A DNA stretch of 64,000 bases, from NCBI GenBank assembly GCA_029262175.1, contig JAJCZV010000099.1, forward strand, positions 35,561-99,560, written 5' to 3'. The position numbers were made by a program, and so were the translations under genes. The stretch comes from Gemmatimonadota bacterium. GTDB lineage: Bacteria > Gemmatimonadota > Gemmatimonadetes > Palauibacterales > Palauibacteraceae. How positions within the stretch are numbered: position 1 is the first letter of the stretch; every line of letters begins with the position of its first letter. Below the pieces are notes generated by a model that was not told the DNA's origin, ran no database searches, and was given only the letters and a program-made list of their open reading frames with translations. Shown here one piece after another: positions 9,278-63,145 of the stretch.

Positions 9278-12067
9278 TCAGAACGAGAGGTACTGGCTCA
9301 CCTTCAAGATGAAGATGTTCTCGGCTGGAGCGGCGAATAGTCCGTTGAAATCTCGGCTCAGATCGAGATTTCCGACGTCGACATTGTCGCGTCGACTATG
9401 CTGCCACACCAAGAAGATCTGCGAGCCCGGCCGATACTCCCATCGGAACACCGCGTTTCCTCTCAGCGATCGAATATTGAAGTCTCGGTCGCTGGTCGAG
9501 AAGTCGCTGGCTTGATCTCCATCGAAGTCGAAGTAGCGGGTGTCGTCGATGATGCAGGTCTGTCCGCCCTGGCAGAGGATCGCCCCACCCTGGTCCAGCG
9601 CCGTGCCCTCGGCGAAGTCGATGAAGTCGAAGGACTCGGAGCGTTCGAGCTGCCGGTAGGTGAGATAGTCGCCCGATGAGATCAGCGGTTGCAGGAAGAG
9701 CTGAAGGCTGACATCGGGGCTGAACGTCACGTTGAGCCGCGTCTCCATCGCGAAGGACTTCCTGCTCAGATCGCCGAATAGGTAGCGGCTTCCAAAGGTC
9801 GGTGCGTAGGGGAGGTCGCTCGACGTCGACACATATTGCGCGCCATCACGCGCGCTCGTGTAGCGGGGCCCAAACTCGAGTTCCCAACTCGACGACGGAC
9901 GGAGTTGGAACCGTAGACTGGTTTCGAGTCGGTTGCCGCGACCCGCGTAGGACTTCTCGTACGTGACGGAGGGCTCTACCGAGACGGCGGAGCGCCGGTC
10001 GGTGTTCAACCTGAGATTGAGGTTGAGCGACGCAGGGTCGGCCATCAGCGGGCCGCCTCTAGTCTGCGTGTCGGACTGACTCTGGGGAGAATACCACGCT
10101 CGCCAGCCCAGCCCCCAGTTGTTGAGGAAAGTAAAGTTCCCGTTTAGGAAGAAACCGCCGCTCTCATGGGATCGCGCGATGTTCGAGCTCGAGAAGCCGT
10201 CCTCGAGCAGCGAGTGCCTGAAATTGTGGAACGTGAAGAAATTGATGCTGTAATCTTGGAACACGCTTCCGGGCCGGATCTCGCGGTATTGCAGCCGCCC
10301 ACCCACGTCGAGCTTTTCTCCGCCCGTCAAGAAGCCGAGATCGTTGATCTCGAAGCCGGGAGACTGTTGGCCGACCCACGTGGACCACGTCCAGTGCTCG
10401 GCGCTCTGACGCTCGAGCTGCAGACGCCAATCGCTGCCGAACAGCGAAGTGGCGGTCGAATCGACAGCGAGATAATCCGCGTCGGGGCGCTGAAAGAAAT
10501 GGGTTGAATTTTGCTGGATGGAAAGCAGCGCGTCCGGCGACCCGTTTACCAAACTCCCCGAGTAGAATCCCCACAGGCGCCAGTCGCGTCCGCGCCCGCC
10601 ACCCCACTGATGCTCGAAATCGAGGCCGAAGGTGTAGGCGTTCGATGGAAGAAAATCGAATGCGCCGTCCTCCGGTAAACCACGTTGGAGGGCCGTCCCG
10701 ATCAAACCGACCTTCGAGCCGCCATCGCGAAAGTCCTGTTGAAGACGGAGGACGCCGTATCGGCCCTGCGGCTCGGCCGTGTAGCGGCCAATCGAGTCGC
10801 CCGCGGCAAAGAACGCAGATCCGGTCTCTCGGCCGGTGACGGCCGCCAACGCACCCAGCGAGAGCCCGCCCGAGGTTCGACCGGTCAGCTTCGCCGCACC
10901 CAAAATCGTCGTCTGACTGGGTCGCTCTATGAAGTCCGCGCTGCTCGGGCTCGACCCCCGCGGCTCGCGCCCGATCCGTCGGCTGAAGAACAGCGACTTC
11001 CCACGACCGCCTCCACCACGACTTTCGCCAAAGTCGAAGACGCGTGCGTCTTGTACGAAGAACGGACGCTTCTCCGGAAAGAAGGTCTCGAAGGCCGTGA
11101 GGTTGATGACCTCGGGGTCGACCTCCACTTGCCCGAAATCAGGTGTGAACGTCGCGTCGAGCGAAAACGCCGAGCCGATGCCCATGCTCACATCGGCGCC
11201 GAAGCGGGGATCGAAGTCCGACCCGTCGAACAGGGGGTTGCCCGGTTCGACCGGCCCGGTCTGAATCTGCGAGACGGCGAACGGCGTGACCTCGAAGCGC
11301 CGGCTGGCCCTCGCGACCTGAATTCCGTCGATGGTGCCGAACTGGCTCACCTTGCCGCGCACCGTCCGCGACTCGAGCGAGAAGTAGTCGGTCTCGTTGG
11401 ATTCGAGGCGTCGCCGGGACAGGTTGATGCCCCAGGTTTGGTCGCCGGGGCGAGCCTCATAACGAATCTGAGACAATGGGATTCGAAGCTCCGCGGTCCA
11501 CCCCAACTCATCTTGTTGAACGGCGGAGTCCCAGATCGCGTCCCAGTCCGCGTCGTCCTGCACATCGGCAAACAGGAAGGCGTCGCTCTCGGCGCCCGCC
11601 GCGCTGACGAGGAATCGATATCCGGTCAGACCATCTCGGTTGGGATCGAGAGAGATCGAAAACGAATCGAACGCCCCGCGCTCATCGCGCCGGACCAATT
11701 GGTCGCGGATGACCGAGGGATCGGACTCGTACATCCGGGCGGCCACGTATAGCGCGTCGTCGTCAAACAGGATCCGCACTTCGGTGGGTTCGGCTGGCTC
11801 CCGACCCTCGAAGGGCTCGCCCTGCGTGAATCCACCGATCACGGGGGCAGTTTGCCAGGCGGCGTCGTCGAGCCGGCCATCGATCGAAATCGACCCGTCC
11901 AACCTCACCGCCCGGGCACTTGCGGTCCGCTCGGCACCCCGCGTGGTTCCGCCATCCGCGGATGCCAAGCCCTCCTGCGCCGCCCCCTCACCCGATATCC
12001 CCAGCGCCAAGAAACCGGCCGCTAGGGCCAAAAAGGGCCGGATCCGGCCCTGTCGTATTGTCGTCAT
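9278..12067 (-). CDS. Large secreted DUF5916 / carbohydrate-binding-family-9-like domain protein
   Basis: Signal peptide MTTIRQGRIRPFLALAAGFLALG. N-terminal block VRLDGSISIDGRLDDAAWQTAPVIGGFTQ...EVRILFDDDALYVAARMYESDP resembles CBM9-like/DUF5916 proteins. Start chosen at the internal Met that has the signal peptide. Confidence 0.6.
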   Translation of the reverse strand: MTTIRQGRIRPFLALAAGFLALGISGEGAAQEGLASADGGTTRGAERTASARAVRLDGSISIDGRLDDAAWQTAPVIGGFTQGEPFEGREPAEPTEVRILFDDDALYVAARMYESDPSVIRDQLVRRDERGAFDSFSISLDPNRDGLTGYRFLVSAAGAESDAFLFADVQDDADWDAIWDSAVQQDELGWTAELRIPLSQIRYEARPGDQTWGINLSRRRLESNETDYFSLESRTVRGKVSQFGTIDGIQVARASRRFEVTPFAVSQIQTGPVEPGNPLFDGSDFDPRFGADVSMGIGSAFSLDATFTPDFGQVEVDPEVINLTAFETFFPEKRPFFVQDARVFDFGESRGGGGRGKSLFFSRRIGREPRGSSPSSADFIERPSQTTILGAAKLTGRTSGGLSLGALAAVTGRETGSAFFAAGDSIGRYTAEPQGRYGVLRLQQDFRDGGSKVGLIGTALQRGLPEDGAFDFLPSNAYTFGLDFEHQWGGGRGRDWRLWGFYSGSLVNGSPDALLSIQQNSTHFFQRPDADYLAVDSTATSLFGSDWRLQLERQSAEHWTWSTWVGQQSPGFEINDLGFLTGGEKLDVGGRLQYREIRPGSVFQDYSINFFTFHNFRHSLLEDGFSSSNIARSHESGGFFLNGNFTFLNNWGLGWRAWYSPQSQSDTQTRGGPLMADPASLNLNLRLNTDRRSAVSVEPSVTYEKSYAGRGNRLETSLRFQLRPSSSWELEFGPRYTSARDGAQYVSTSSDLPYAPTFGSRYLFGDLSRKSFAMETRLNVTFSPDVSLQLFLQPLISSGDYLTYRQLERSESFDFIDFAEGTALDQGGAILCQGGQTCIIDDTRYFDFDGDQASDFSTSDRDFNIRSLRGNAVFRWEYRPGSQIFLVWQHSRRDNVDVGNLDLSRDFNGLFAAPAENIFILKVSQYLSF

Positions 12068-12265
12068 GTAGAGATGAACACCTGCGGTGGGAATCGCGTT
12101 CATTCGAACGGTCGCTCTGACGTAGCCTCGTTCCTGCAAGGAAGATGCGCGCGGGGCCGTCGTTGCGAGATCCGGGCCCCCGCGGACAAGAAAACCTCGC
12201 GGTCGGACGGCAGAGCTTGAGGACTCGGTAGCAGTCACGTATTTTGCCCGTGCAGGTAAAATTCG

Positions 12266-12320
12266 TTCGTGGTGATTTGAAGCAGATTGCAGCCACGCTA
12301 AACAAGTCGCTAAAGAGCTA
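12266..12320 (+). ncRNA. Candidate SAM-II-clan (SAM-II/SAM-V-like) riboswitch aptamer in the metH 5' leader, with a possible short hairpin plus U-run at 12321-12344
   Basis: Sequence CGUGG-UGAUUUG-AAGCAG-AUUGCAG-CCACG-CUAAACAAGUC-GCUAAAGAGCU. A P1 stem CGUGG/CCACG encloses a loop with GAUUU and AUUGCA, followed 11 nt later by GCUAAAG. This matches the conserved SAM-II arrangement as I recall it (e.g. Agrobacterium metA). It sits about 50 nt upstream of the metH start in a 300-nt leader that is lower in GC. Confidence 0.45.
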
Positions 12321-12368
12321 CGCCCCGGGCGCGTCTTTTTGTGAGCGGCTGGGGTTTCGCGTATCGAG

Positions 12369-15300
12369 GTGTCAGTGTCCGAAGCGCACGAGGATCGAAG
12401 GACCAGAAACGTAGACCTGCCGGGCGGGCGGAGCGAGCGCATCGCTCGACTTCGGGATTGTATGTCGGACCGGATCCTCGTGATGGATGGCGCCACCGGT
12501 ACGATGATCCAGGGACTCGATCTGGACGAGGATGCCTATCGGGGAGATCGATTCGCGGGGCATCCCTCCCCGCTCACGGGCAATCACGACCTGCTCTCGA
12601 TCACCAGACCGGACGACATCGCGAGTTTCCACCGAGCCTACTTCGAAGCCGGTGCCGACTTCGTCACCACGAATACGTTCAACGCCCAGGCGGTGTCTCA
12701 AGCCGACTACGGTACTGAGGCCTACGTCCACGAGATGAACGTTGCCTCCGCCTCGATCGCTCGAGGCGTGGCCGATGAAGTGACCGCAACCGATCCGTCT
12801 CGCCCGCGCTGGGTATTGGGCGCCATGGGCCCGACAAACCGAACGGCTTCGCTGTCGCCGGACGTCGAGAATCCCGCCTTTCGCGGGGTGAGTTTTGACG
12901 AACTCGCCAGCGCGTACAAAGAGCAGGCTGCCGGACTCGTCCAAGGTGGCGCCGACGTACTTCTCATCGAGACCGTGTTTGATACGCTCAACTGCAAGGC
13001 GGCGATTTTCGCGATTCTCGAACTCGCCGAGGAGTTGGGCACAGAGATCCCGATCGCGGTGTCCGGCACCATTACCGATCTGTCGGGGCGGACGCTGTCC
13101 GGTCAGACGGTTGAGGCGTTTTGGATTTCTATTCGGCACGCCGATCCGATGTTCGTCGGTCTGAATTGCGCACTGGGAGCCGATGAACTGGCTCCTTATG
13201 TGGCCGATCTTGCCCGCGTGGCCGAGACCCGTGTGAGCTGTCACCCGAACGCGGGACTGCCCAACGAATTCGGCGGCTATGACGATACGCCCGCTCACAT
13301 GGCGAAGGTGTTGGGCGGCTTCGCGGACCGCGGTCTGCTCAACGTCGTCGGGGGCTGCTGCGGTACGACGCCAGACCACATCACGGCGGTGGCGGAGCGA
13401 GTCCAGGGCCTTTCGCCCCGAGTTCCGATCCAGGTGGAACCGTTTCCACGTTTTTCCGGGTTGGAGCCGTTCGTCATTCGACCGGAATCGTTGTTCGTCA
13501 ATATCGGCGAGCGAACCAACGTCACCGGCTCCGCTCGATTTGCTCGTCTCATTCGCGAGGACAACCTGGAGGAGGCCCTAGACGTAGCCCGGGATCAGGT
13601 CGAGAACGGCGCGCAACTGCTCGACGTCAACATGGATGAGGGCCTGCTCGATTCTGAGGCGGCGATGACGACGTACCTAAACCTCATCGCGTCTGAGCCC
13701 GACATCGCCCGTATCCCGATCGTGGTCGACTCTTCCAAGTGGTCCGTCATCGAGGCCGGCCTCAAGTGCATCCAAGGCCGACCCATCGTTAACTCGATCT
13801 CGCTGAAGGAAGGTGAAGAGGAGTTTCTTCGGCAGGCGCGGCTGGTCCAACGGTACGGCGCTGCCGTGATCGTGATGGCGTTCGACGAGGATGGCCAGGC
13901 GGATACCGTCGATCGCAAGGTCGACATTTGTGCGAGGGCCTACGGGCTCCTCACGACCGAAGCGGGGTTTCGCCCCGAGGACATCATATTTGATCCAAAC
14001 GTGTTCGCCGTCGGAACGGGAATCGCGGAGCACGATGAATACGGCAACGCGTACGTGGAAGCGGTGCGTCGGATCAAGACGGAGCTCCCGGGCGCGCTAA
14101 CGAGCGGCGGGATCAGCAACGCGTCCTTTTCCTACCGCGGGAACGATGCCGTCCGAGAGGCGATGCACACCGCGTTTCTCTTCCGAGCCATCGAAGCCGG
14201 TCTCGATATGGGCATCGTCAATGCGGGTCGCCTTCCCGTGTACGACGACATCGACCCAGAACTTCTCGAGGCGTCCGAGGACGTGCTGTTCAATCGTACC
14301 GAAGGCGCGACCGAACGCCTCACGGATCTCGCCACTCGCATTCGGGACAAGGGCATCGAGACGGTCGTCGACCTCGCCTGGCGCGAGGGCACGGTCGAGG
14401 CGCGCCTCGAGCACGCACTCGTGGAAGGGCTCGTCGAGTTTATCGAAGAGGACACCGAGGAGGCCCGACAGAAGTTGGACGTCGCGCTTCAAGTCATCGA
14501 AGGTCCGCTGATGGATGGCATGAACCGCGTGGGCGACCTCTTCGGAAGCGGACGAATGTTTCTGCCCCAAGTGGTCAAGTCTGCGCGAGTGATGAAGAAG
14601 GCCGTGGCGTACCTCACCCCCTACCTGGAGGCCGAAAAAGCGGCTCTGAGGGCTTCCTCCGGCGAGGACCCGGCCGAAGAAGTCGATTCAAAGGGGAAGG
14701 GGAGGATCCTGCTCGCCACGGTGAAGGGGGACGTTCACGACATCGGCAAGAACATTGTCGGCGTCGTGCTGCAATGTAACGGATATCAAGTGGTCGACCT
14801 GGGCGTGATGGTGGCCGCGGAAACGATTCTGGCTCAGGCGAAGGAACACCGGGCAGACGTGGTCGGGCTCAGCGGACTGATTACGCCGTCGCTCGATCAT
14901 ATGGTCACCGTCGCATCGGAAATGGAGCGCGAGGGCTTCGAGGTGCCGCTTCTGATCGGAGGCGCCACTACGTCGCGAAAACACACCGCGGTCAAGATCG
15001 AGAAGCAGTATTCGGGGGCGACGGTTCACGTCCTCGATGCGTCTCGGGCCGTCGGTGTGGTGGGCGAGCTGCTGAGCGAGGAGCGATCGGCGGACTACGT
15101 TGCCGAGGTTCGCGCGGATTACGAGCAGGTCCGCGTCGACTACGCCGAGAGAGACCGCGCCATCGCGCCGATCCAAACCGCGCGAAACAATCGGTTAAAG
15201 ATCGACTTCGGGGCTGTGCCACCGGTCGCGCCTCGAAAACCTGGCATCCACGTGTTCGACCCGGTCCCCCTCGCTGAGCTTGTCGACTACATCGACTGGA

Positions 15301-16148
15301 CTCCGTTCTTCCAAGCTTGGGAGATCAAAGGTCGCTATCCGGAAGTGTTCGAGATGGGCGCGCGAGGCCAGGCTGCGCGAACGCTCTTCGACGACGCTCA
15401 GATCTTACTTCGCAGGATCATCGATGAGAAGCTGCTCGTCGCTCGAGCAGTCACCGGGCTGTTCCCGGCCGCCGCTCGTGGTGATGACATCGTCTACTTC
15501 GAAGATGAGGCACGGTCCCGACCTTTGGTCACCGTGTCGCACCTCCGCCAGCAGATGGAAAAAAAGGCGCCCCGTCCCAACCTGTCTCTGGCCGATCTGA
15601 TCGCCGACGAAGGCTCGGGCGTGCAGGATTGGGGCGGCGCCTTCGCGGTCACCGCGGGTATCGGTTTGGATGTGCTGTGCGCCGACCTCGAAGCCGAGAA
15701 CGATGACTATCAGAGTCTGCTCGCCAAGTCGCTCGCGGACCGATTGGCCGAGGCCCTCGCAGAACGTCTTCACGAGAGGGTTCGGACTGAACTGTGGGGG
15801 TATGAAGTCGAGGAGACGGTGTCCAACGAAGAGCGGATTCGGGAGGCCTATGTCGGGATTCGTCCCGCGCCGGGGTATCCCGCGTGCCCCGATCACTCGC
15901 AGAAGACTCAGTTGTTCGAGCTTCTCGGGGCGGAGGCGCGCACCGGTATCGAGCTCACCGAGTCGTTTGCGATGCTGCCGGGTGCGGCCGTGAGCGGGTG
16001 GTATTTCGGCCACCCCGAGGCGACGTACTTCGGGTTGGGGCGGATCGGGCGAGATCAAGTGGAAGACTACGCGGCTCGACGCGCGATCGAAGTCGCCGAG
16101 GCCGAGCGGCTTCTATCCCCGAATCTCGCCTACGACGCGGCGGAGTGA
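12369..16148 (+). CDS. metH: Cobalamin-dependent methionine synthase (5-methyltetrahydrofolate-homocysteine methyltransferase)
   Basis: All four modules are present: Hcy-binding ([14 protein letters not shown]), pterin-binding, B12-binding ([25 protein letters not shown]), and AdoMet activation domain. 1259 aa. Confidence 0.95.
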
Positions 16149-16152
16149 CGAG

Positions 16153-18003
16153 TTGAGCGGCGCCCGGGATCGTATCCGTGAGATGATTGCCGACGACACC
16201 GTCCATGTGGTAGATGGCGCGATGGGTACCGTCCTCTATCAGCGTGGCGTGTTCGTCAACGAATGTTACGACGAGCTCAGTCTCAGCAATCCGGAGGTCG
16301 TGCTCGCCGTGCACGCCGAGTACGTGCGAGCGGGCGCGGAACTCATCGAGACGAATACGTTTGGCGCCAACCCCGTGAAGCTCGGGGCATTCGCGCTCGA
16401 CGATCGGACCGAAGAGATCAACGAAGCGGCGGCTCGCCTGGCCGTGCAAGCGTCGCGGCAGCGTGCGAGCGTACTCGGGGCCATGGGTCCGCTCGGGATA
16501 CGCATCGAGCCTTGGGGGCCGACCTCGGTCGATGAGGCTGCCGCCCTGTTCGAACGGCAGGTCATGGGTTTGGCCGCGGGCGGCGTCGACGGATTCATGC
16601 TCGAGACCTTCGCCGACCTGGACGAGCTGCTCCAAGCGGTGCGCGCGGTGCGAAACATCGCGGGGGATGCACCGGTGTTCGCGCAAATGTCCTTCGGCGA
16701 TGAGGGCGCGACCGCGTACGGAACGACCATCGAGGCGGCCGCGGCCGGGCTGGAAAAAGCTGGGGCCGATGTCATCGGGCTCAACTGTTCCGTGGGCCCT
16801 TCGTCGATGCTCGTGGGTGTGGAACGGATGGCGGCTGCCACCGGCCGTCCCGTCTCCGCGCTTCCAAACGCGGGTCTGCCGCGCGACGTCGGTGATCGAA
16901 AGATCTATCTGGCCAGCCCGGAATACATGGCGCGCTACGGCCGCCGGATGGCGGAGTCCGGGGCGCGGTTCGTCGGCGGGTGCTGCGGAACGACGCCGGA
17001 GCACACGCGTCACATGGTCGAGCTGCTCGGGACCAAGGGGCTTCGTCCGGCGCGAGTCACCAGCGCTCCCTCCAGGAGTGGCGAGCGGCCAGGCAGCGCC
17101 GAGTCCACCCCGCTGGCGGATCGATCGGCGCTCGGCCGCCGACTCGCTGCGGGCGAGTTTATTCGGGCCGTCGAACTCACGCCGCCGCGTGGGTGGGAGC
17201 CCCGCGAGTTGATCGCCGGGGCGCGTCACCTTCGAGACGTGGGGGTCGATACGGTTCACATCGTCGACGGCCCGGTCCATCGAAGCCGCGTAGCCTCGCT
17301 CCCGGCGGCGATCGTCATTGAACGCGAACTCGGGATCGAAACCGTCGCGCACTACAGTTGTCGAGATCGAAACATGCTCGGCATGGTGAGTGACATTTTG
17401 GGCGCGGCTGCCGCCGGGTTGCGAAACCTCCTCCTCGTCACGGGGGATCCTCCACGCGGCGGCCCCTACGACACGGGTGGGGTCTACGACATCGATAGCA
17501 TCGGTCTGACCAATGTCGTTCGGCAGCTCAACCTGGGCCGAGATCCGGGCGGCGGTTCGATCGGGGCTCCCACGTCCTTCGTCGTCGGCGTGGCCGTGAA
17601 CCCTGGAGCCCTCGATCCAGAGGAGGAGATTCGGCGGTTCGCGTGGAAGGCGGAGGCCGGGGCCGATTTCGCCGTGACGCAGCCGAGTTTCGACCCGGAC
17701 GGATTTCTGAAATTCGCCAAGCGCATCGAAGAGTTCGGCGTGCCGCTTCTGGCCGGGTTATGGCCGCCGCTTTCATTGGAGAACGCGGAGTTCCTGGCCA
17801 ACGAAGTGCCTGGTGTGCGGGTGCCGGAGTCCGTGCTCACTCGGATGCGCAAGGCGAAGGACCGGGGCGAGACCGCGGCAGCGCAGGAAGGGGTCGACGT
17901 GGCAAGAGAGGTGCTGTCGGAGATTCGGTCGGCCGTCGCGGGCGTCTTGGTGTCGGCGCCGTCCCACCGTGTGGACCGAGCGATCGCCGTACTCGAAGAG
18001 TAG
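16153..18003 (+). CDS. Bifunctional homocysteine S-methyltransferase / 5,10-methylenetetrahydrofolate reductase (YitJ-like fusion)
   Basis: N-terminal HMT domain (VVDGAMGTVLY...GCCGTTPEH). C-terminal MetF domain (ELTPPRG, HYSCRDRN, LLVTGDPP). Begins 4 nt after metH. Start codon is uncertain (TTG at 16153 or ATG at 16183). Confidence 0.85.
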   Translation: MSGARDRIREMIADDTVHVVDGAMGTVLYQRGVFVNECYDELSLSNPEVVLAVHAEYVRAGAELIETNTFGANPVKLGAFALDDRTEEINEAAARLAVQASRQRASVLGAMGPLGIRIEPWGPTSVDEAAALFERQVMGLAAGGVDGFMLETFADLDELLQAVRAVRNIAGDAPVFAQMSFGDEGATAYGTTIEAAAAGLEKAGADVIGLNCSVGPSSMLVGVERMAAATGRPVSALPNAGLPRDVGDRKIYLASPEYMARYGRRMAESGARFVGGCCGTTPEHTRHMVELLGTKGLRPARVTSAPSRSGERPGSAESTPLADRSALGRRLAAGEFIRAVELTPPRGWEPRELIAGARHLRDVGVDTVHIVDGPVHRSRVASLPAAIVIERELGIETVAHYSCRDRNMLGMVSDILGAAAAGLRNLLLVTGDPPRGGPYDTGGVYDIDSIGLTNVVRQLNLGRDPGGGSIGAPTSFVVGVAVNPGALDPEEEIRRFAWKAEAGADFAVTQPSFDPDGFLKFAKRIEEFGVPLLAGLWPPLSLENAEFLANEVPGVRVPESVLTRMRKAKDRGETAAAQEGVDVAREVLSEIRSAVAGVLVSAPSHRVDRAIAVLEE

Positions 18004-26760: not shown

Positions 26761-29358
26761 TCAGCCCAGTCGCGTGTGGAGCTTCTCCAACGCGCTCATC
26801 AGGTCCGGCTTCACTTCCAGCACCGGCAGAAACGGATCTTCCTTCATCGACGTTACGCGGCGGATCATCGTCTTGATCGTGAACTTGTTCATGCTCAACC
26901 CCTTCTTGACTTCGCTCCAGCGCAGCGGGGCGGAGACCGTCGCTCCCTTCTTAGGGCGCACGCAGTAAGGGGACACCACCAGGCGCCCGCGGCCGTTTTG
27001 CACGTAGTCGACATAGACTTTCCCGCCGCGCTTGCCTGGTGACCGCACGACCGTAGCGACGTCGGATCGGTCGGCCGCCACCGTTTGGGCGAGCAGCTGG
27101 GCCAACGAGCGTGACTGCTCATAATCGAGCTGTCCGCCAAGCGGAATCATCACGTGGATTCCAGAGGACCCGCTCGTCTTCGGATAACACGGGAGCCCGA
27201 TTTCGTCGCAGAGCGAGTGAATGGTGCGGGCCACCTCGATGACATCCTCGAACGAGGCATACACCTCCTCCCCATCGACTTGGTGCTTGGGGTCGAGATC
27301 GAGAAGACACCAGTCCGGATGGTCCAGCGTGTCCAGGCGACTCGCCCAGACGTGCAGCGGGATCGTCCCCAGGTTCGCGAGATACACGAGTGCCGCCGCG
27401 TTGTCCGCGACGAAGTACTCGATGCTTCGTTCGGACCCTTCGCTCCAGATCGGTTCCGTGCGGATCCATTCAGGCTCGAAACCCGGTGCGTTCTTCTGGA
27501 AGAAGCTCTTGCCGTCGATGCCATCGGGATATCGAGTCAGGACCAGAGGTCGTTCCTTGAGGTGCGGAAGAAGCCACGGCGCGATGGCCCGGTAATAGGC
27601 GATGAGATCGCCCTTGGTATACCCCTCCTCCGGCCAGAACACCTTGTCCAAGTTCGAGAGCGGGATGTCGTCGAGCGGTGGCGGTCCGAAGTCGACCGGC
27701 ACGGGCTCGCCCAAATCCTCGCGCGGATCTCGGGGTCGACGGCAGTCGGTCGGCGGCACGTCGCGGAGCCCGAGGAAGGCGGGTTGTCGAAGAAGAAACT
27801 CGTTCGTGAGTTCCTTGTACCGGACACCCGCGACCAGCTCCGGTGTGACCCACGTGTGTTCTGGTCCCTTCGGAATTGGCGGCAGGAAAGCGGGTTCCTC
27901 GCACACGAGCTCATCCAGCTGCGCGCGAATCGATTCCAACAGCTTTTGATCGAACCCGGTACCGACGCGTCCGGCGTAGCGAAGGACGCGTTGCGTGTCG
28001 TCCGTAGCGGCTTCGTCGGAGACCGAAGCATCGTCGTAGACCGCCACGTGCAGCGCGCCGAATCCTGTGCGCGACGACTTGGGCTGGGTAAACCCGACGA
28101 TGACGAAATTCGCCTGTAGTGCGGCGTGGATCTTCAACCAGCTGTCGGACCGATCGCCGTAGTACTTGGAGTCGGACCGCTTGGCCATGATCCCCTCCAG
28201 CCCCATCTCCTGCACCTGCTTGAAGAGGCCGGTCCCTGCGCCTTCGAAGCCCTCGCTGAATCGGATCGGGCCCGCCTCGGGCACGACGCGTCGCAGCAGT
28301 TCTCGGCGGGTCGAAAGTGCGAGTCCGCGCAGGTCGTAATCGTCGAAGCCGAGCAAATCGAACGCGTAGAAGCAAGCGGGCGATTCGAACGAGGCACGCC
28401 GGACATCGGGGGGGCGCGAAAGACGCGCGCGCTTTTGTAGACCCTGGAAGCTGGGGTATCCGGAGGCATCATGAACCACGATCTCGCCATCCAGCACGAC
28501 GTGATCGAAGGGTAGCTTCTTGAGCGAGCGCGCGATCTCCGGGAAGCTCGCGGTCGCGTCGTGTCCGTTTCGTGTAAGAATGCCGGCTCTTCCGTCGGAG
28601 GCAGACGCGAGCATCCGGTAGCCGTCGAGTTTGAGTTCGAAGATCCAATCCGGGTTGTCGAACGGCTCATCGCCCTGTTTGGCGAGCATGAATCGGACGT
28701 CTTTGGGATCGACGCGCGTCTGCTCCGCGCCGGCTTCGCCCAGCGCTTCGAGGATCGCTTCACCGGGGTACCATCCGGCTTCCCGTTCGGCCAAGTCCTC
28801 GACCGTCAGACCCGACAGCACTGACGTCTCCGGGAGCGATCCATCCGGGAGGATCGGGTGACCGCCGCGCTTCTCTCGGATCAGCAGCCACTCGTTGCCG
28901 GTCTCGCTCTTCTTGAGCCGGACCAGCGTCCACACGCCCTTGAGTTTGTGGCCGCGGAGCTCGAACAGAAGCTTGCCCTCCTCCAACCCGAGCGTCGGGT
29001 CTTCGAGCGCGATCCAACGCCCGATGTCCCAAACGATCATCTCGCCGCCGCCGTACTCGCCCTCGGGAATCACGCCCTCGAACTCGACGTACTCGACGGG
29101 GTGGTCTTCGACGTGGACCGCGAGCTTCTTATCCACGGGGTCCGGGGAGATGCCCTTTGGGACAGCCCAGGACAGGAGCGTCCCGCCCAACTCCAATCTC
29201 AGGTCGTAGTGGAGGCGGCTGGCGGCGTGTTTCTGGACCACAAATACGCCGATGCCCGTCCCGAGCGAGCCGCCAAACGGCTCGGGGGTGCGGTCCGCGG
29301 CGCGTTTGGCCCGGTATTTCGTGAGCGGCTGGGTCTCGCTCGCGGTTTTTCTCGGCAT
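26761..29358 (-). CDS. ligD: Multidomain ATP-dependent DNA ligase LigD (phosphoesterase - ligase - polymerase/primase order)
   Basis: N-terminal PE domain (VVQKHAASRLHYDLRLE...LLSWAVPKG). Ligase motif I ELKLDGYR. C-terminal Pol domain (IDGKSFFQKNAP). 865 aa. Confidence 0.9.
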   Translation of the reverse strand: MPRKTASETQPLTKYRAKRAADRTPEPFGGSLGTGIGVFVVQKHAASRLHYDLRLELGGTLLSWAVPKGISPDPVDKKLAVHVEDHPVEYVEFEGVIPEGEYGGGEMIVWDIGRWIALEDPTLGLEEGKLLFELRGHKLKGVWTLVRLKKSETGNEWLLIREKRGGHPILPDGSLPETSVLSGLTVEDLAEREAGWYPGEAILEALGEAGAEQTRVDPKDVRFMLAKQGDEPFDNPDWIFELKLDGYRMLASASDGRAGILTRNGHDATASFPEIARSLKKLPFDHVVLDGEIVVHDASGYPSFQGLQKRARLSRPPDVRRASFESPACFYAFDLLGFDDYDLRGLALSTRRELLRRVVPEAGPIRFSEGFEGAGTGLFKQVQEMGLEGIMAKRSDSKYYGDRSDSWLKIHAALQANFVIVGFTQPKSSRTGFGALHVAVYDDASVSDEAATDDTQRVLRYAGRVGTGFDQKLLESIRAQLDELVCEEPAFLPPIPKGPEHTWVTPELVAGVRYKELTNEFLLRQPAFLGLRDVPPTDCRRPRDPREDLGEPVPVDFGPPPLDDIPLSNLDKVFWPEEGYTKGDLIAYYRAIAPWLLPHLKERPLVLTRYPDGIDGKSFFQKNAPGFEPEWIRTEPIWSEGSERSIEYFVADNAAALVYLANLGTIPLHVWASRLDTLDHPDWCLLDLDPKHQVDGEEVYASFEDVIEVARTIHSLCDEIGLPCYPKTSGSSGIHVMIPLGGQLDYEQSRSLAQLLAQTVAADRSDVATVVRSPGKRGGKVYVDYVQNGRGRLVVSPYCVRPKKGATVSAPLRWSEVKKGLSMNKFTIKTMIRRVTSMKEDPFLPVLEVKPDLMSALEKLHTRLG

Positions 29359-58097: not shown

Positions 58098-58892
58098 GTG
58101 AGCACACCAATCGAAGCCACGTCCCGGCCAGACGGCGCCCGCTCGACGTTCGTTCACGGGGGTTTGGCGGAAGCTCGAATCGGAGACGAGGTCGACCTTT
58201 CCTCGACCGAAGTGGGGCACGCCCGGAGCGCCCGCGTACGGATCGGCGAGGCGGTCATGCTGACCGATGGCCATGGGACCCGTTGGGCCGCATCGCTGAC
58301 GGCGCTGGAGCGACGGACCGGGCGTTGCCGCCTGGTGGAACCGTGTCCATCCGAGCCTCAGCCCGCCGTTTCGCTGTGGATTCCGGTGGCAAACCGGGAT
58401 CGCACACTCTGGCTTGTCGAGAAGTCGGTGGAGCTCGGCGTGGCCTCGATCCGGTGGATCGAGTGGGAGCGCTCGAGATCCGTAGCCGATGCTGCGCGGT
58501 CACCCGCTTTTCGCGCCCGGGCTCTGACTCGGGCCGAGGCCGCGTTAAAACAAAGTGGAGGCGCATGGCTTCCACGGATGGTCGAGCCCGCCCCGCTGGA
58601 TGAAGCGTTGACGTTGGACCGGGCACCCAACGAGGTCCGATGGCTTGCCGATGCTCGGGGCGAACCCTCGTTCGTCGTCGCCAACCGTTTGAGCCTCGCG
58701 GTCGCGAAAGCGCCTCACGCGGTCTCCGTTTTGGTCGGGCCCGAGGGCGGGTTCACCGAGGAAGAGGCGGCCCGGTGCTCGGCGGCCGGCTTCGACTCCG
58801 TCTCCATCGGTACGCGGACCCTGCGGTTCGAGACGGCGGCGATCGCGATGCTCGGTCTGGCGGCGTCTGCGCTCGCCGTCGCGCGACCATGA
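58098..58892 (+). CDS. rsmE: 16S rRNA (uracil1498-N3)-methyltransferase RsmE
   Basis: PUA-like N-terminus, then SPOUT domain (LWIPVANRDRTLWLVEKSVELGV, LVGPEGGFTEEE). Start codon uncertain. Confidence 0.75.
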   Translation: MSTPIEATSRPDGARSTFVHGGLAEARIGDEVDLSSTEVGHARSARVRIGEAVMLTDGHGTRWAASLTALERRTGRCRLVEPCPSEPQPAVSLWIPVANRDRTLWLVEKSVELGVASIRWIEWERSRSVADAARSPAFRARALTRAEAALKQSGGAWLPRMVEPAPLDEALTLDRAPNEVRWLADARGEPSFVVANRLSLAVAKAPHAVSVLVGPEGGFTEEEAARCSAAGFDSVSIGTRTLRFETAAIAMLGLAASALAVARP

Positions 58893-61312
58893 TGGAGCCC
58901 GATCACGCGCTTTCGGTCTTGGAGTTTGGTCGCGTGCTGGATGTCGTCGCTAAACGCGCCGTAAGTGAAGCGGGAGCTGCAGACGTGCGGGGACTCCGTC
59001 CCCTCGGAAGCCGGGCGCTGGCTGCGAGGACCCTCGAAGCCGTGGACGAGCTTCAAGCACAACTGACCGGAGCCGACCGGTGGAATCTCGAGGCCTTCCC
59101 GGACTTGGCCGGGACTCTTCGAAAACTCTCGATCCCCGACGCGTCGCTGGAAGCACAAGCCCTGGTGGACTGTGCTGCCGTCATGGCGACCGCCCGCAGC
59201 GCCAAGTCGCTGGAACGACAGCTGTCGCCGGACGGCATCGCCGGGAAGTGGGTGGCTCAGTTATGGGGCGACGTCGATCTCGAGAAACGGATCGCTCGAA
59301 CGTTCGATGAATCCGGAGCCGTGGCCGATCGAGCCTCACCGGAACTAAAGCGGATCCGCCGCAGTCTCGTGGACGGCCGCGCGCGCTTGGTAGAGCGACT
59401 GGATCGCTACGCGAGGGAGCTTCCAGAGCGGGTTCGCGTGCCGGACGCTTCGGTCACGGTGCGTAACGGGCGCTACTGCGTGCCGTTACGCCGAGAGGGG
59501 AAGGGGGCCGTAGGGGGGCTCGTCCACGATGCCTCGGCGAGCCGACAGACGCTGTTCGTCGAGCCGACGATCGCGATCGAAGCGATGAACGAGATCCGCG
59601 AGCTGGAAATCGCGGAGGTCAGGGAAGTGATGCGGATCCTGAGAGCGCTCTCAGGTGAGGTGAGCGCCGTGGTCCGAGAGCTTGCCGGCTCTTACGAGGC
59701 TCTCGTTCAACTCGACTCGTTGCGAGCACGAGCCCGGGTTGCTCAGGAGCTCGGTGCCTCGTCGCCCGATCTTTTCGAGGGAGCGGGGCCGATCGAGATG
59801 CGCGGTGCGCGACACCCGCTCCTGGCGCTCATGGGAGACGGAGCCGTTCCCTTCGATCTGGTGCTTGCCCCGAACGAACGCGTGCTGCTGGTGTCGGGGC
59901 CCAACGCCGGTGGAAAGACCGTGCTTCTAAAAGCGTTCGGGCTGACGGCGGCGCTCGCGCAAAGCGGCGTGGTGCCTCCGGTCGCGCCGGGAACAAGGCT
60001 ACCGTTCTTTCGTCGGCTCTTCGCAGTGATCGGAGACGAACAATCCATCGACGCCTCTCTGTCGACCTTTGGGGCGCAAGCGAAGAACCTCGCCGAGATT
60101 CTTATCGAGTCGACGGCAGAGGACCTGGTGCTCATCGATGAGATCGGAAGCGCGACCGATCCCGCAGAGGGCGGTGCGCTGGCGGCTGCAACCCTCACGC
60201 GCTTGTCCACGCAGGCCCGACTCACGATCGCGACGACGCACCTGGGCGATCTCAAACGTTTGGAGGACGAGGGTGCCGCCACCGTAAATGCGTCGCTCCA
60301 GTTTGACTCCGAGCGTTTGGAACCGACGTATCGCCTGGTTCGGGATCGACCGGGTCGGAGCTATGCCCTTGTGATCGCGGCTCGTCTCGGCGTGCCGGAG
60401 GATGTCCTCGCCGATGCCAGAGCCCGCCTCGACGCCGAACACGTATCGCTCGATACACTGCTCGAGCGACTCGAGGGGGAGCGGATCGAGGTCGAGGGCC
60501 TTCGAGAGCAACTGGAGGAGCGCGCGGACCGCTTGCGAGACAGAGAGAACTCACTCGTCGAACGCGAGACGCGGGTGGCGGCCGAAGTTCGCGCGGCGAC
60601 CCGCGAGCGCGAAGAGGCTCGCAATCAGGCCCTGAAGGAGGCGCGCGCGACGATCGCCGAGACGATCGATGCGCTCGAGGTTCGTTATGGGGAACGGGAC
60701 AGCGAGTCGCGCGCGGAGGCCAAGCGCTCGGCCAGAGGAACCGTCGAGCGCGCCATCCGCGAATCGGGCGCGGCGCTCGCCGGGCTGCAGGAGGTCCCAT
60801 CTCCCGCAGGCGACGCATCGACGCCTCGCGTCGGCGAAACCGTGCGATGGCACGACTCCAAGCGCTCGGGGGTATTGGTGGAAATCCGAGGCGATCGCGG
60901 CGTGGTGTCGGTCGACGGTCTTCGACTCAAGGTTCCGCTCAGCGACCTCTTGGCGCATCCTATGAGCGTCGGCGCGCGGCAGGAGGAGACGGTGCGTCCC
61001 GTCAAGCCCCGATCTCGATCGGGCACTACGCTCGGGCCGGAGTTCGTCGTTTCGACGGAAGTCGACTTGCGCGGTCTCCGAGTGGACGAGGTCGAGGCCG
61101 TGTTGTTCCCGGCGCTGGACGCGGCCGTGGTCGCGGAGTTGCCCTGGCTTCGGATCATACACGGAAAGGGAACCGGGGCACTGAGAGAGGTTGTACAGGA
61201 GTTGCTGTCCGCCGACGGAAGGATCCCGTCCTTCCGACCCGGCGAATCGAACGAGGGAGGTACCGGCGTCACAGTGGTGGACTTTGAAGAACGCGACGCA
61301 AGTGAATCGTAA
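58889..61312 (+). CDS. mutS2: Endonuclease MutS2 (MutS domain plus C-terminal Smr)
   Basis: Walker A VSGPNAGGKTVLLK. DEIGSATDP. C-terminal Smr (DLRGLRVDEVEAVLFPALDAA...IIHGKGTGALR). ATGA overlap with rsmE. Confidence 0.9.
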   Translation: MMEPDHALSVLEFGRVLDVVAKRAVSEAGAADVRGLRPLGSRALAARTLEAVDELQAQLTGADRWNLEAFPDLAGTLRKLSIPDASLEAQALVDCAAVMATARSAKSLERQLSPDGIAGKWVAQLWGDVDLEKRIARTFDESGAVADRASPELKRIRRSLVDGRARLVERLDRYARELPERVRVPDASVTVRNGRYCVPLRREGKGAVGGLVHDASASRQTLFVEPTIAIEAMNEIRELEIAEVREVMRILRALSGEVSAVVRELAGSYEALVQLDSLRARARVAQELGASSPDLFEGAGPIEMRGARHPLLALMGDGAVPFDLVLAPNERVLLVSGPNAGGKTVLLKAFGLTAALAQSGVVPPVAPGTRLPFFRRLFAVIGDEQSIDASLSTFGAQAKNLAEILIESTAEDLVLIDEIGSATDPAEGGALAAATLTRLSTQARLTIATTHLGDLKRLEDEGAATVNASLQFDSERLEPTYRLVRDRPGRSYALVIAARLGVPEDVLADARARLDAEHVSLDTLLERLEGERIEVEGLREQLEERADRLRDRENSLVERETRVAAEVRAATREREEARNQALKEARATIAETIDALEVRYGERDSESRAEAKRSARGTVERAIRESGAALAGLQEVPSPAGDASTPRVGETVRWHDSKRSGVLVEIRGDRGVVSVDGLRLKVPLSDLLAHPMSVGARQEETVRPVKPRSRSGTTLGPEFVVSTEVDLRGLRVDEVEAVLFPALDAAVVAELPWLRIIHGKGTGALREVVQELLSADGRIPSFRPGESNEGGTGVTVVDFEERDASES

Positions 61313-61330
61313 CCGCGTGGTTCGCTCGAC

Positions 61331-63145
61331 ATGGTAGGCGATCATCTCGTAGAGGAAATCCGCGCACGCGCGGACGTGGTCGAGTTGATTGGCGAGTACG
61401 TCTCGCTCAAGCGGTCGGGCAAGAGCTACCGGGGACCGTGTCCTCTCCACGGAGGCGACGGCGCCAATTTCTCCGTCGACCCCGACCGCCAAATTTTCAA
61501 ATGCTTTGTTTGCGGCGAGGCCGGAGACGTCTTTGGCTTCCTGATGAAGCACCTCGGCATGACCTTCCCCGAAGTCGTCCGCCTCGTGGGGGCGCGCGTG
61601 GGGATAGAAGTACCCGATCGGGAAGAGCGTCGGGAAGACCCCTACGCGCCTCTGCGCAGCGCGCTCGCGTTCGCCGCCGAGTGGTACGAGGCGCAGTTGG
61701 CGGGACCGCTCGGCGCGTCTGCTCGAGAATACCTCGAACGTCGGGGCCTCACGTCCGAGGATGCGACACAATTCGGCATCGGGTTTGCCCCCGATGACTG
61801 GCGGGCTCTCCGGACCGCGGCGCTCGCAACCGGGATCGAGGAGCGGGTCCTGCTCGAGCTCGGTCTCCTGGCGACCAGTGAGCGCGCGGAAGAATCCTAC
61901 GACCGGTTCCGCGGCCGTCTGATCTTCGCGATTAGAGATCTGCGAGATCGCCCCATCGCGTTTGGCGCGCGAATCCTCGACGCCCGATCTGACGCTCCGA
62001 AATATCTCAACTCACCCGAGTCACCGGTCTTTCACAAAGGTGAGGAACTCTATGGCCTCAACTGGGCCCGGCACTCGATCCGGCGGGAGGAGCGCGCCGC
62101 GATCGTGGAAGGTTTTACCGATGTCATCGCACTTCATCGAGCGGGCCTACCGTTTGCGGTCGCCGGACTCGGCACCTCGTTTACTCGCGATCAGGCCCAG
62201 CGTCTGGCTCGTTACACCAAGCGCGCGTACCTGCTTTACGACAGCGACGGCCCGGGGCTCCGCGCCACCTTCCGGACGGGAGACATCCTTTTGTCGGCGG
62301 GGGTCCACCCGCTGGTCGTAACGCTGCCTGAAGGAGAGGACCCGGATTCGTTGATTCGAAGCGGAGGGCCGGAAAAGATGCACGCGCTGTTTGATGATGC
62401 TGTCGATCTCCTGGAGCGAAAGCTTCAAATCCTTCGTCGAGAGGGGTATCTCGATCGGATCGAGGGAAAGCGGCGGGCGGTCGATGGGCTGATGAGTACC
62501 CTCCGCGCTGCGAGCGATCCCGCGCTCCGCGACCTCTACCTGGATCAAACGGTCAAGGAACTGGGGGTCCTTCGAGAAACCCTCGTACACGACATCGCCA
62601 GCGCTCCCCGTCCGGGGACGGTCGCTCGTCCCGTGTCGCGCCCCACACGAGGGGTCCCGGAGGTGGGTGGGTCCATGGCTCGCGGCGAGCGAAACTTGGT
62701 CCTGCTTTTGGTGAGAGATCCGGAGTTGGTGCGGCGCGCGATTCGACTGGGGCTGGAGCCGAAGCATTTTGGCGATTCGAATGCACGCGAGGTGTTCGAA
62801 GCGATTTCGATGGCGGCTGATGGAGGCGAGGAGCTCGACGATTGGTCATCGCTCTCCGCCGACGCCAAAGCGTTCGTGGAGCAATTGTTGGAGACCTCCG
62901 AGGAGGTTGGTGAACCCGTTGCGGTCTTCGAAGCCTTTGCTCGGCGGCTGCGCTACGGAGGTCATCACGATCGGCGCGGCGCCATCGATCAAGAGATGGA
63001 GCTTGCGGAATACGATCATCAACGTCGATTGTTGCAGGAGAAGCAGGAAGTGACCGCCGAGCTTCGTCAGGCTGGGGACAGCGCCAGCTTCATCCCAGGT
63101 CGGGGTTCCAGGCGACCAGGTTCGGATCGGCAGCGCAGCACGTAG
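61331..63145 (+). CDS. dnaG: DNA primase
   Basis: CHC2 zinc finger CPLHGGDGANFSV...FKCFVCGEAGDV. TOPRIM EGFTDVIALH, DSDGPG. Confidence 0.9.
   Translation: MVGDHLVEEIRARADVVELIGEYVSLKRSGKSYRGPCPLHGGDGANFSVDPDRQIFKCFVCGEAGDVFGFLMKHLGMTFPEVVRLVGARVGIEVPDREERREDPYAPLRSALAFAAEWYEAQLAGPLGASAREYLERRGLTSEDATQFGIGFAPDDWRALRTAALATGIEERVLLELGLLATSERAEESYDRFRGRLIFAIRDLRDRPIAFGARILDARSDAPKYLNSPESPVFHKGEELYGLNWARHSIRREERAAIVEGFTDVIALHRAGLPFAVAGLGTSFTRDQAQRLARYTKRAYLLYDSDGPGLRATFRTGDILLSAGVHPLVVTLPEGEDPDSLIRSGGPEKMHALFDDAVDLLERKLQILRREGYLDRIEGKRRAVDGLMSTLRAASDPALRDLYLDQTVKELGVLRETLVHDIASAPRPGTVARPVSRPTRGVPEVGGSMARGERNLVLLLVRDPELVRRAIRLGLEPKHFGDSNAREVFEAISMAADGGEELDDWSSLSADAKAFVEQLLETSEEVGEPVAVFEAFARRLRYGGHHDRRGAIDQEMELAEYDHQRRLLQEKQEVTAELRQAGDSASFIPGRGSRRPGSDRQRST

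Follow-up and report, generated by a model that had tools for sequence, protein, structure and literature searches.

A SAM-II riboswitch in front of the metH operon of a Gemmatimonadota bacterium, most likely an OFF switch acting by transcription attenuation

SAM-I riboswitches (S-box, RF00162) precede yitJ/metH-type genes in Firmicutes and Bacteroidota. SAM-II riboswitches have been called common among alpha-, beta- and gamma-proteobacteria (PMC2704228), and from the beginning they were found outside the alpha-proteobacteria, too, in other proteobacteria and in Bacteroides (PMC1273637). As reconstructed, the alpha-proteobacterial regulon comprises metY, metA, metX, hom, metC and metW, and metH is absent from it (PMC4239095). 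Here, a 64,000-nt stretch of DNA from a Gemmatimonadota bacterium (the window) was analysed, in which a sequence-only reading had noticed a SAM-II-clan riboswitch-like element in the leader of metH. This locus raises two questions: Is the element a genuine SAM-II riboswitch, and how could it control the genes located downstream?

The neighbourhood of the element is composed of the following genes and signals:

9278-12067, - strand: DUF5916 + CBM9 protein of about 930 aa (Pfam), divergently oriented and upstream of SAM-II/metH
12366-12369, + strand: Shine-Dalgarno (SD) sequence GAGG, 5 nt before GTG 12375
12375-16148, + strand: metH, cobalamin-dependent methionine synthase (five MetH Pfam domains)
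16153-18003, + strand: yitJ-like fusion of homocysteine S-methyltransferase and methylenetetrahydrofolate reductase (MTHFR; Pfam PF02574 and PF02219)

The yitJ-like gene begins after a gap of only 4 nt from the metH stop codon and forms an operon with metH. The SAM-II element is situated about 55 nt upstream of this operon. The Pfam domains, first MetH and then the S-methyl_trans/MTHFR fusion, agree with the metH-yitJ operon that had been proposed to follow the element. The leader had also been described as noticeably less GC-rich than its surroundings. Such a dip does exist, but its size is modest (0.56-0.59 across 12100-12399, 0.61-0.70 in the flanks). Otherwise, the window consists of ordinary chromosomal DNA with LigD, MutS2, DnaG and peptidases; for the three-domain LigD (phosphoesterase, ligase, primase-polymerase), the MutS2/Smr protein and the DnaG primase, the coordinates 26761-29358 (- strand) and 58640-63145 (+ strand) are given.

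Three start codons come into consideration for metH: GTG 12369 from the list of open reading frames, GTG 12375 and ATG 12462, the start of a 100% identical protein in the database (P0001, 1228 aa). GTG 12375 is likely the true start, because it is preceded by the SD sequence GAGG, because the motif GAGG, 5 nt, GTG TCC GAA is common to the window and the related loci L163-L166 (in L163, the SD arrangement reads GAGGTGTTTGTG), and because a conserved N-terminal helix extends 5' of ATG 12462. Therefore, 29 residues are probably missing from the MetH copy in the database. The metH gene call in L163 starts even further in, inside the conserved ILVLDGATGTM motif.

To establish the identity of the element, both strands of the 64 kb were scanned with cmscan against Rfam 15 at the gathering threshold. 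Family RF00521 (SAM_alpha = SAM-II) matches 12259-12333 on the + strand with 52 bits and an E value of 8.3e-9. The gathering cut-off is 36 bits, and the alignment covers model positions 1-79 of 79. The search with SAM-II and SAM-V models proposed in the sequence-only reading was hence significant for RF00521, and the suspected SAM-II-clan element is indeed present in the metH leader. No other Rfam family exceeded its gathering threshold in the whole 64 kb, and RF00162 (SAM-I) had no match in the window. A permissive scan with E<=10 was limited to 12150-12480. It recovered the RF00521 match and yielded no match to SAM-V (RF01826), and RF01726 (SAM-II long loop) scores 25.2 bits over the same bases as RF00521, below its cut-off of 44. 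On these grounds, both identities were ruled out. From the earlier designation 'SAM-II/SAM-V-like', the first half can be kept, whereas the second has to be dropped.

The core string quoted in the earlier description is present in the sequence, with CGTGG beginning at 12268, 2 nt downstream of the start at 12266 given there. Its parts and the structural elements assigned to them by the structure line of the covariance model (CM) and the alignment are as follows:

12268-12272, + strand: CGTGG
12273-12279, + strand: TGATTTG
12280-12285, + strand: AAGCAG
12286-12292, + strand: ATTGCAG
12293-12297, + strand: CCACG
12298-12308, + strand: 11 nt, followed at 12309-12319 by GCTAAAGAGCT
12268-12273, + strand: P1 5' strand CGUGGU, partner 12292-12297
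12274-12279, + strand: L1 block GAUUUG (U-rich strand of the SAM-II core)
12281-12290, + strand: P2 5' strand, composed of the distal AGC (12281-12283) and the core UUGC (12287-12290)
12292-12297, + strand: P1 3' strand GCCACG
12309-12319, + strand: P2 3' strand GCUAAAGAGCU, with U12311 unpaired in the model

P1 is composed of 6 bp from C12268-G12297 through U12273.G12292. P2 comprises three distal pairs (A12281-U12319, G12282-C12318, C12283-G12317) and four core pairs (U12287-A12313, U12288-A12312, G12289-C12310, C12290-G12309). A CM was built from seven Rfam-positive metH leaders and run over 160 metH loci from genome and metagenome collections. In the alignment of the seven sequences, the GAUUU, UUGC and GCUAAA blocks as well as the complete L1 block are invariant. 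The core nucleotides of the window (L1 GAUUU, UUGC, L3 UAAA, GCUAAA) all agree with the upper-case CM consensus. The features named earlier as typical of SAM-II, namely P1, GAUUU, AUUGCA and GCUAAA, are all present in the window.

The pairing was evaluated in a larger alignment of 17 metH leaders, the window included, in which P1 and the pseudoknot were written explicitly. GCUAAA is invariant in 17/17 homologues, and L1 carries GATTT in 15/17 and GTTTT in 2/17. For P1 and P2 together, standard pairs make up 96.8% of 219 cells. With shuffled columns, 79.7% of the cells are paired, and 0/500 shuffles reach the observed value; controls with slid partners remain at <=45%. In P1, 97.1% of the cells are paired, and 5 of the 6 pairs change on both sides. 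The four core pairs of P2 are invariant and 100% paired. The three distal pairs of P2 are 91.8% paired, and two of them show compensatory changes, so that seven pairs in all (five in P1, two in distal P2) change on both sides. Distal P2 reads AGC/GCU in the window, GGC/GCC in L021 and ACC/GGU in L009. With seven P2 pairs in the window, the fold check suggested for the H-type pseudoknot was positive. In summary, a full-length match above the cut-off, P1, an H-type pseudoknot P2, the core nucleotides and the position in the leader of a methionine gene are found together. This means, 12259-12333 is an ordinary member of the known SAM-II class. For this class, one stem together with one pseudoknot, both backed by covariation, were described with the metA motif (PMC1273637), and binding of SAM was demonstrated (Corbino et al., 2005, PMC1273637). 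By analogy, the RNA of the window would be expected to bind SAM.

Is the element conserved at this position? The best relatives of the MetH protein are from a 'Gemmatimonadetes bacterium' (79%) and Ca. Palauibacter (72%), followed by other Gemmatimonadota/Gemmatimonadales. The inspection of related metH leaders, which had been recommended as a check, revealed the layout DUF5916 (- strand), SAM-II, metH and yitJ-like gene in identical form in five relatives (L161, L163-L166), with RF00521 scores of 45-54 bits. Together with synteny and leader similarity, the MetH hits make an origin of the window in the Gemmatimonadota most probable. The gene pair metH and yitJ-like occurs in L161-L166. The DUF5916 + CBM9 gene lies beside the SAM-II/metH operon in 6/6 syntenic Gemmatimonadota loci examined. 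A metagenome scan, in which the best identity among the matches listed was 64%, added at least 7 further SAM-II/metH leaders. In two Gemmatimonadota metH loci, L001 and L037, no SAM-II was detected either at the Rfam threshold or with our own model and filters off, and the switch is therefore patchy within the Gemmatimonadota. This pair includes the best match among the genome contigs (68% identity), and L001 carries four tRNA genes about 2 kb upstream instead.

Beyond this phylum, Neomarinimicrobiota and several beta-proteobacteria have SAM-II directly before metH, accompanied by canonical terminators. The loci concerned are L002 and L009 (Neomarinimicrobiota), L005, and L071, L072 and L016 (beta-proteobacteria); the metagenome loci L081, L095, L102 and L107 also have SAM-II before metH. 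By contrast, 0 of the alpha-proteobacterial metH loci fetched (L003, L017, L026, L034, L054, L057, L063, L065) have SAM-II. Other riboswitches precede metH elsewhere: SAM-I (RF00162) in eight loci (L012, L014, L038, L042, L056, L060, L067, L075), seven from Bacteroidota and one labelled Janthinobacterium lividum, and the SAH riboswitch (RF01057) in one gamma-proteobacterial MAG (L055). L075 has an additional SAM-I/IV element downstream of metH. In the metagenome contig L112, SAM-II (481-556) is not adjacent to the metH match but separated from it by about 950 nt on the upstream side; another gene may be located between switch and metH.

How could the aptamer be connected to expression of the operon? 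The earlier reading had suggested a possible transcriptional expression platform composed of a short GC hairpin and a run of five U (12321-12344). Folding, constrained folding and comparison with relatives led to another assignment:

12305-12317 (AGUCGCUAAAGAG) with 12335-12340 and 12344-12350 (CUUUUU..AGCGGCU), + strand: antiterminator (constrained fold)
12322-12355, + strand: terminator-like hairpin, 34 nt (folding, homology to terminators of relatives)
12355-12357, + strand: remnant U tract UUU, followed by CGCGUAU

The hairpin 12322-12355 has the outer stem GCCCCGG/CUGGGGU and the inner stems CGC/GCG and UC/GA. Its folding energy amounts to -20.3 kcal/mol, and the pair probabilities of the outer stem are >=0.99. 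The short hairpin 12321-12334 comprises just 4 bp at -4.8 kcal/mol, was missed by the terminator scan, and was rejected as a terminator with U5; the real hairpin is 12322-12355. The U5 run itself (12336-12340) is located in the apical loop of the latter and aligns with the antiterminator strand of the relatives, which also contradicts a role as terminator tail. According to the constrained fold, it is predicted to be the antiterminator strand that pairs with the aptamer tail GCUAAAGAG.

The antiterminator reaches -17.5 kcal/mol and excludes the terminator hairpin, with which it overlaps at 12335-12350. Its 5' arm includes the 3' strand of P2, so that this strand is common to pseudoknot and antiterminator. 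The transcriptional type of design that had been suggested is supported in part, but the assumed strength of the terminator is not borne out, as only UUU follows the real hairpin. Within the 8 nt that follow the stem, the window and L161 contain 3 U, compared to 5-7 in eight other Gemmatimonadota leaders. An intrinsic terminator defined as a GC-rich hairpin followed by >=5 U is formed by the homologous hairpins of the relatives but not by that of the window, and the terminator scan called neither 12321-12334 nor 12322-12355. Judged from the nucleotides after the stem, the hairpin is predicted to be a weaker terminator than was assumed, and because its U tract is only UUU, the efficiency of termination in the window is uncertain.

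An alignment of ten Gemmatimonadota leaders was used to examine the conservation of the platform. The hairpin columns are 81.6% paired (slid controls <=58%) and the antiterminator columns 87.5% (slid controls <=71%). Column-shuffle controls were not significantly exceeded for either stem in these ten leaders, because the columns are mostly conserved and not covarying. The homologous hairpins of L163-L166 and L109 are canonical terminators, and 6-7 U follow the hairpin in L163, L165, L166, L109, L008 and L027. In Ca. Palauibacter (L164), the tail CGCUAAAGA is opposite a perfect UCUUUAGCG, and U8 follows the hairpin. With the tail free, folding of L008 and L021 gives the antiterminator as minimum-free-energy structure. 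The window and L161 keep their stems despite the short U tract.

Candidate promoter elements were found upstream of the aptamer:

12217-12222, + strand: putative -35 hexamer TTGAGG, 17 nt 5' of TATTTT
12240-12245, + strand: putative -10 hexamer TATTTT

The position of the candidate -10 hexamer suggests a transcription start near 12252. L161 has TTGAGC-17 nt-TAACTT at equal distance from P1, and the -10 pattern TAnnnT is kept in position in L161, L021, L008 and L027. With 8/12 matches, TTGAGG/TATTTT was not called by a promoter scan with a threshold of 9/12. In SAM-II, promoters are usually located a few nt 5' of P1 (Corbino et al., 2005, PMC1273637).

Based on aptamer, platform and conservation, we are confident that a genuine SAM-II riboswitch precedes the metH operon, and that it most likely operates as an OFF switch by transcription attenuation. 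Transcription would start near 12252. When SAM is abundant, it would lock the H-type pseudoknot composed of P1 (12268-12273/12292-12297) and P2 (12281-12290/12309-12319). The locked P2 would sequester the tail GCUAAAGAGCU and bar the antiterminator. Hairpin 12322-12355 could then form, and transcription would be stopped, or at least attenuated, before metH. At low SAM levels, tail 12305-12317 would pair with 12335-12350 instead, which would block the hairpin's 3' half and let RNA polymerase read into metH. In equilibrium folding, the terminator hairpin forms with the tail free or bound (pair probability >=0.99). As the hairpin wins at equilibrium in either state, control would have to be kinetic, i.e. 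co-transcriptional. Kinetic control is usual for transcriptional riboswitches. The weakest step of this model is termination in the window genome, as no more than UUU is left of the U tract.

Sequestration of the SD sequence by the switch was rejected. The leader has no anti-SD sequence, the SD is not part of P2, and the predicted accessibility of 12366-12369 did not differ clearly between the two states, nor did it shift consistently in one direction.

Owing to the short U tract, some weight was given to an alternative read-out. The SAM-II element would still be a functional sensor, but in the sub-clade of window and L161 its output would not be intrinsic termination. Instead, it might act via Rho, via mRNA stability or via translation at a distance as in Sinorhizobium meliloti metA. 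Both leaders combine UUU with intact stems, and the pair 12327-12350, G-C in L163, G.U in the window and A-U in L161, suggests that selection still acts on the hairpin. In S. meliloti, the stability of RNA is influenced by SAM-II switches, and an SD located within the aptamer tail is responsible for initiation 74 nt downstream (PMC9373788). The tail AAAGAG of the window is SD-like and located about 55-60 nt before GTG 12375. However, AAAGAG belongs to the aptamer consensus, and the corresponding tails of L021, L008 and L027 do not resemble an SD, and a consistent effect on the SD at 12366-12369 was not predicted. Positive signs of a role of Rho or an RNase were not found. Furthermore, short U tracts can still support termination. 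For these reasons, we regard a read-out other than intrinsic termination as quite improbable. A related proposal concerns the sub-clade of the window genome and GCA_022360695.1: Here, the toggle would have been kept and the poly-U lost, and regulation would occur by U-tract-independent or Rho-assisted termination or by hairpin-dependent mRNA stability. We consider this unlikely, but if true, it would be a natural case of an expression platform that changes its mechanism while the aptamer stays fixed.

Alternatively, the expression platform might be decaying, with the aptamer retained and regulation of metH leaky or lost in the window genome. Compared to eight related leaders, most of the U tract is gone, and the antiterminator of the window has a 3-nt bulge and G.U pairs and is weaker than the perfect 9-bp version of Ca. 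Palauibacter. On the other hand, the aptamer scores 52 bits, equal to or above most relatives, and the window and L161 have kept both stems and antiterminator complementarity despite 21% divergence of MetH. The latter favours purifying selection, and decay is very hard to credit. Finally, a chance resemblance to RF00521 or an assignment to another SAM class, SAM-V or the long-loop variant of SAM-II, could be argued from the sub-threshold match to RF01726, which covers the same bases with 25.2 bits. These readings are effectively refuted by the RF00521 score (E 8e-9), by the permissive scan without a SAM-V match and with RF01726 far under 44, and by the retention of the element, with covariation, in at least 22 metH leaders.

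Which aspects of the proposed SAM-II attenuator are new? The sequence-only reading had considered a terminator and a non-alpha-proteobacterial host noteworthy. Both were already contained in the founding paper, according to which many SAM-II representatives carry intrinsic terminators (known since 2005, PMC1273637), and the S. meliloti metZ SAM-II is of the terminator type as well (Scheuer et al., 2022, PMC9373788). The element of the window resembles described SAM-II RNAs (RF00521, PMC1273637) in its score above the cut-off, in P1 and H-type P2, in the invariant GAUUU/UUGC/GCUAAA core, in its position before methionine-pathway genes and in its predicted terminator/antiterminator platform. It differs in that its host is a member of the Gemmatimonadota and not of the alpha-proteobacteria, in that it targets metH and the yitJ-like fusion, genes not listed in the alpha-proteobacterial regulon (PMC4239095), and in that its U tract is reduced to UUU. 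With S. meliloti metZ it shares a hairpin after the aptamer for which termination on SAM binding is predicted, and with metA a distance of tens of nucleotides from the aptamer tail to the start codon downstream (PMC9373788). In contrast to both, the window shows no sign of riboswitch-derived sRNAs, of the AUG1/AUG2 arrangement or of an SD at a distance, and genes and phylum are others. SAM-V (RF01826) and RF01726 have a similar architecture of pseudoknot and binding site (PMC2704228), but SAM-V lacks the distal P2 helix present in the window. SAM-I (RF00162) has the regulatory logic and the kind of target in common with the window element, whereas the folds, a four-way junction and a pseudoknot, are unrelated. 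In the literature searched, no paper pairing SAM-II/SAM_alpha with Gemmatimonadota was found. The new points are only the host phylum, the target gene and the weakened terminator tail.

The understanding of how SAM-II works is unchanged by this locus. The documented host range of SAM-II, which in the literature searched covers alpha-, beta- and gamma-proteobacteria and Bacteroides, is widened, and so is its target range, since metH is outside the alpha-proteobacterial regulon. In addition, the leaders provide a natural series of platforms from U8 to U3, which could be used to study the need for a U tract of riboswitch terminators in a high-GC phylum. For annotation, the value lies in placing metH and the MTHFR fusion of a Gemmatimonadota lineage under predicted SAM feedback through SAM-II.
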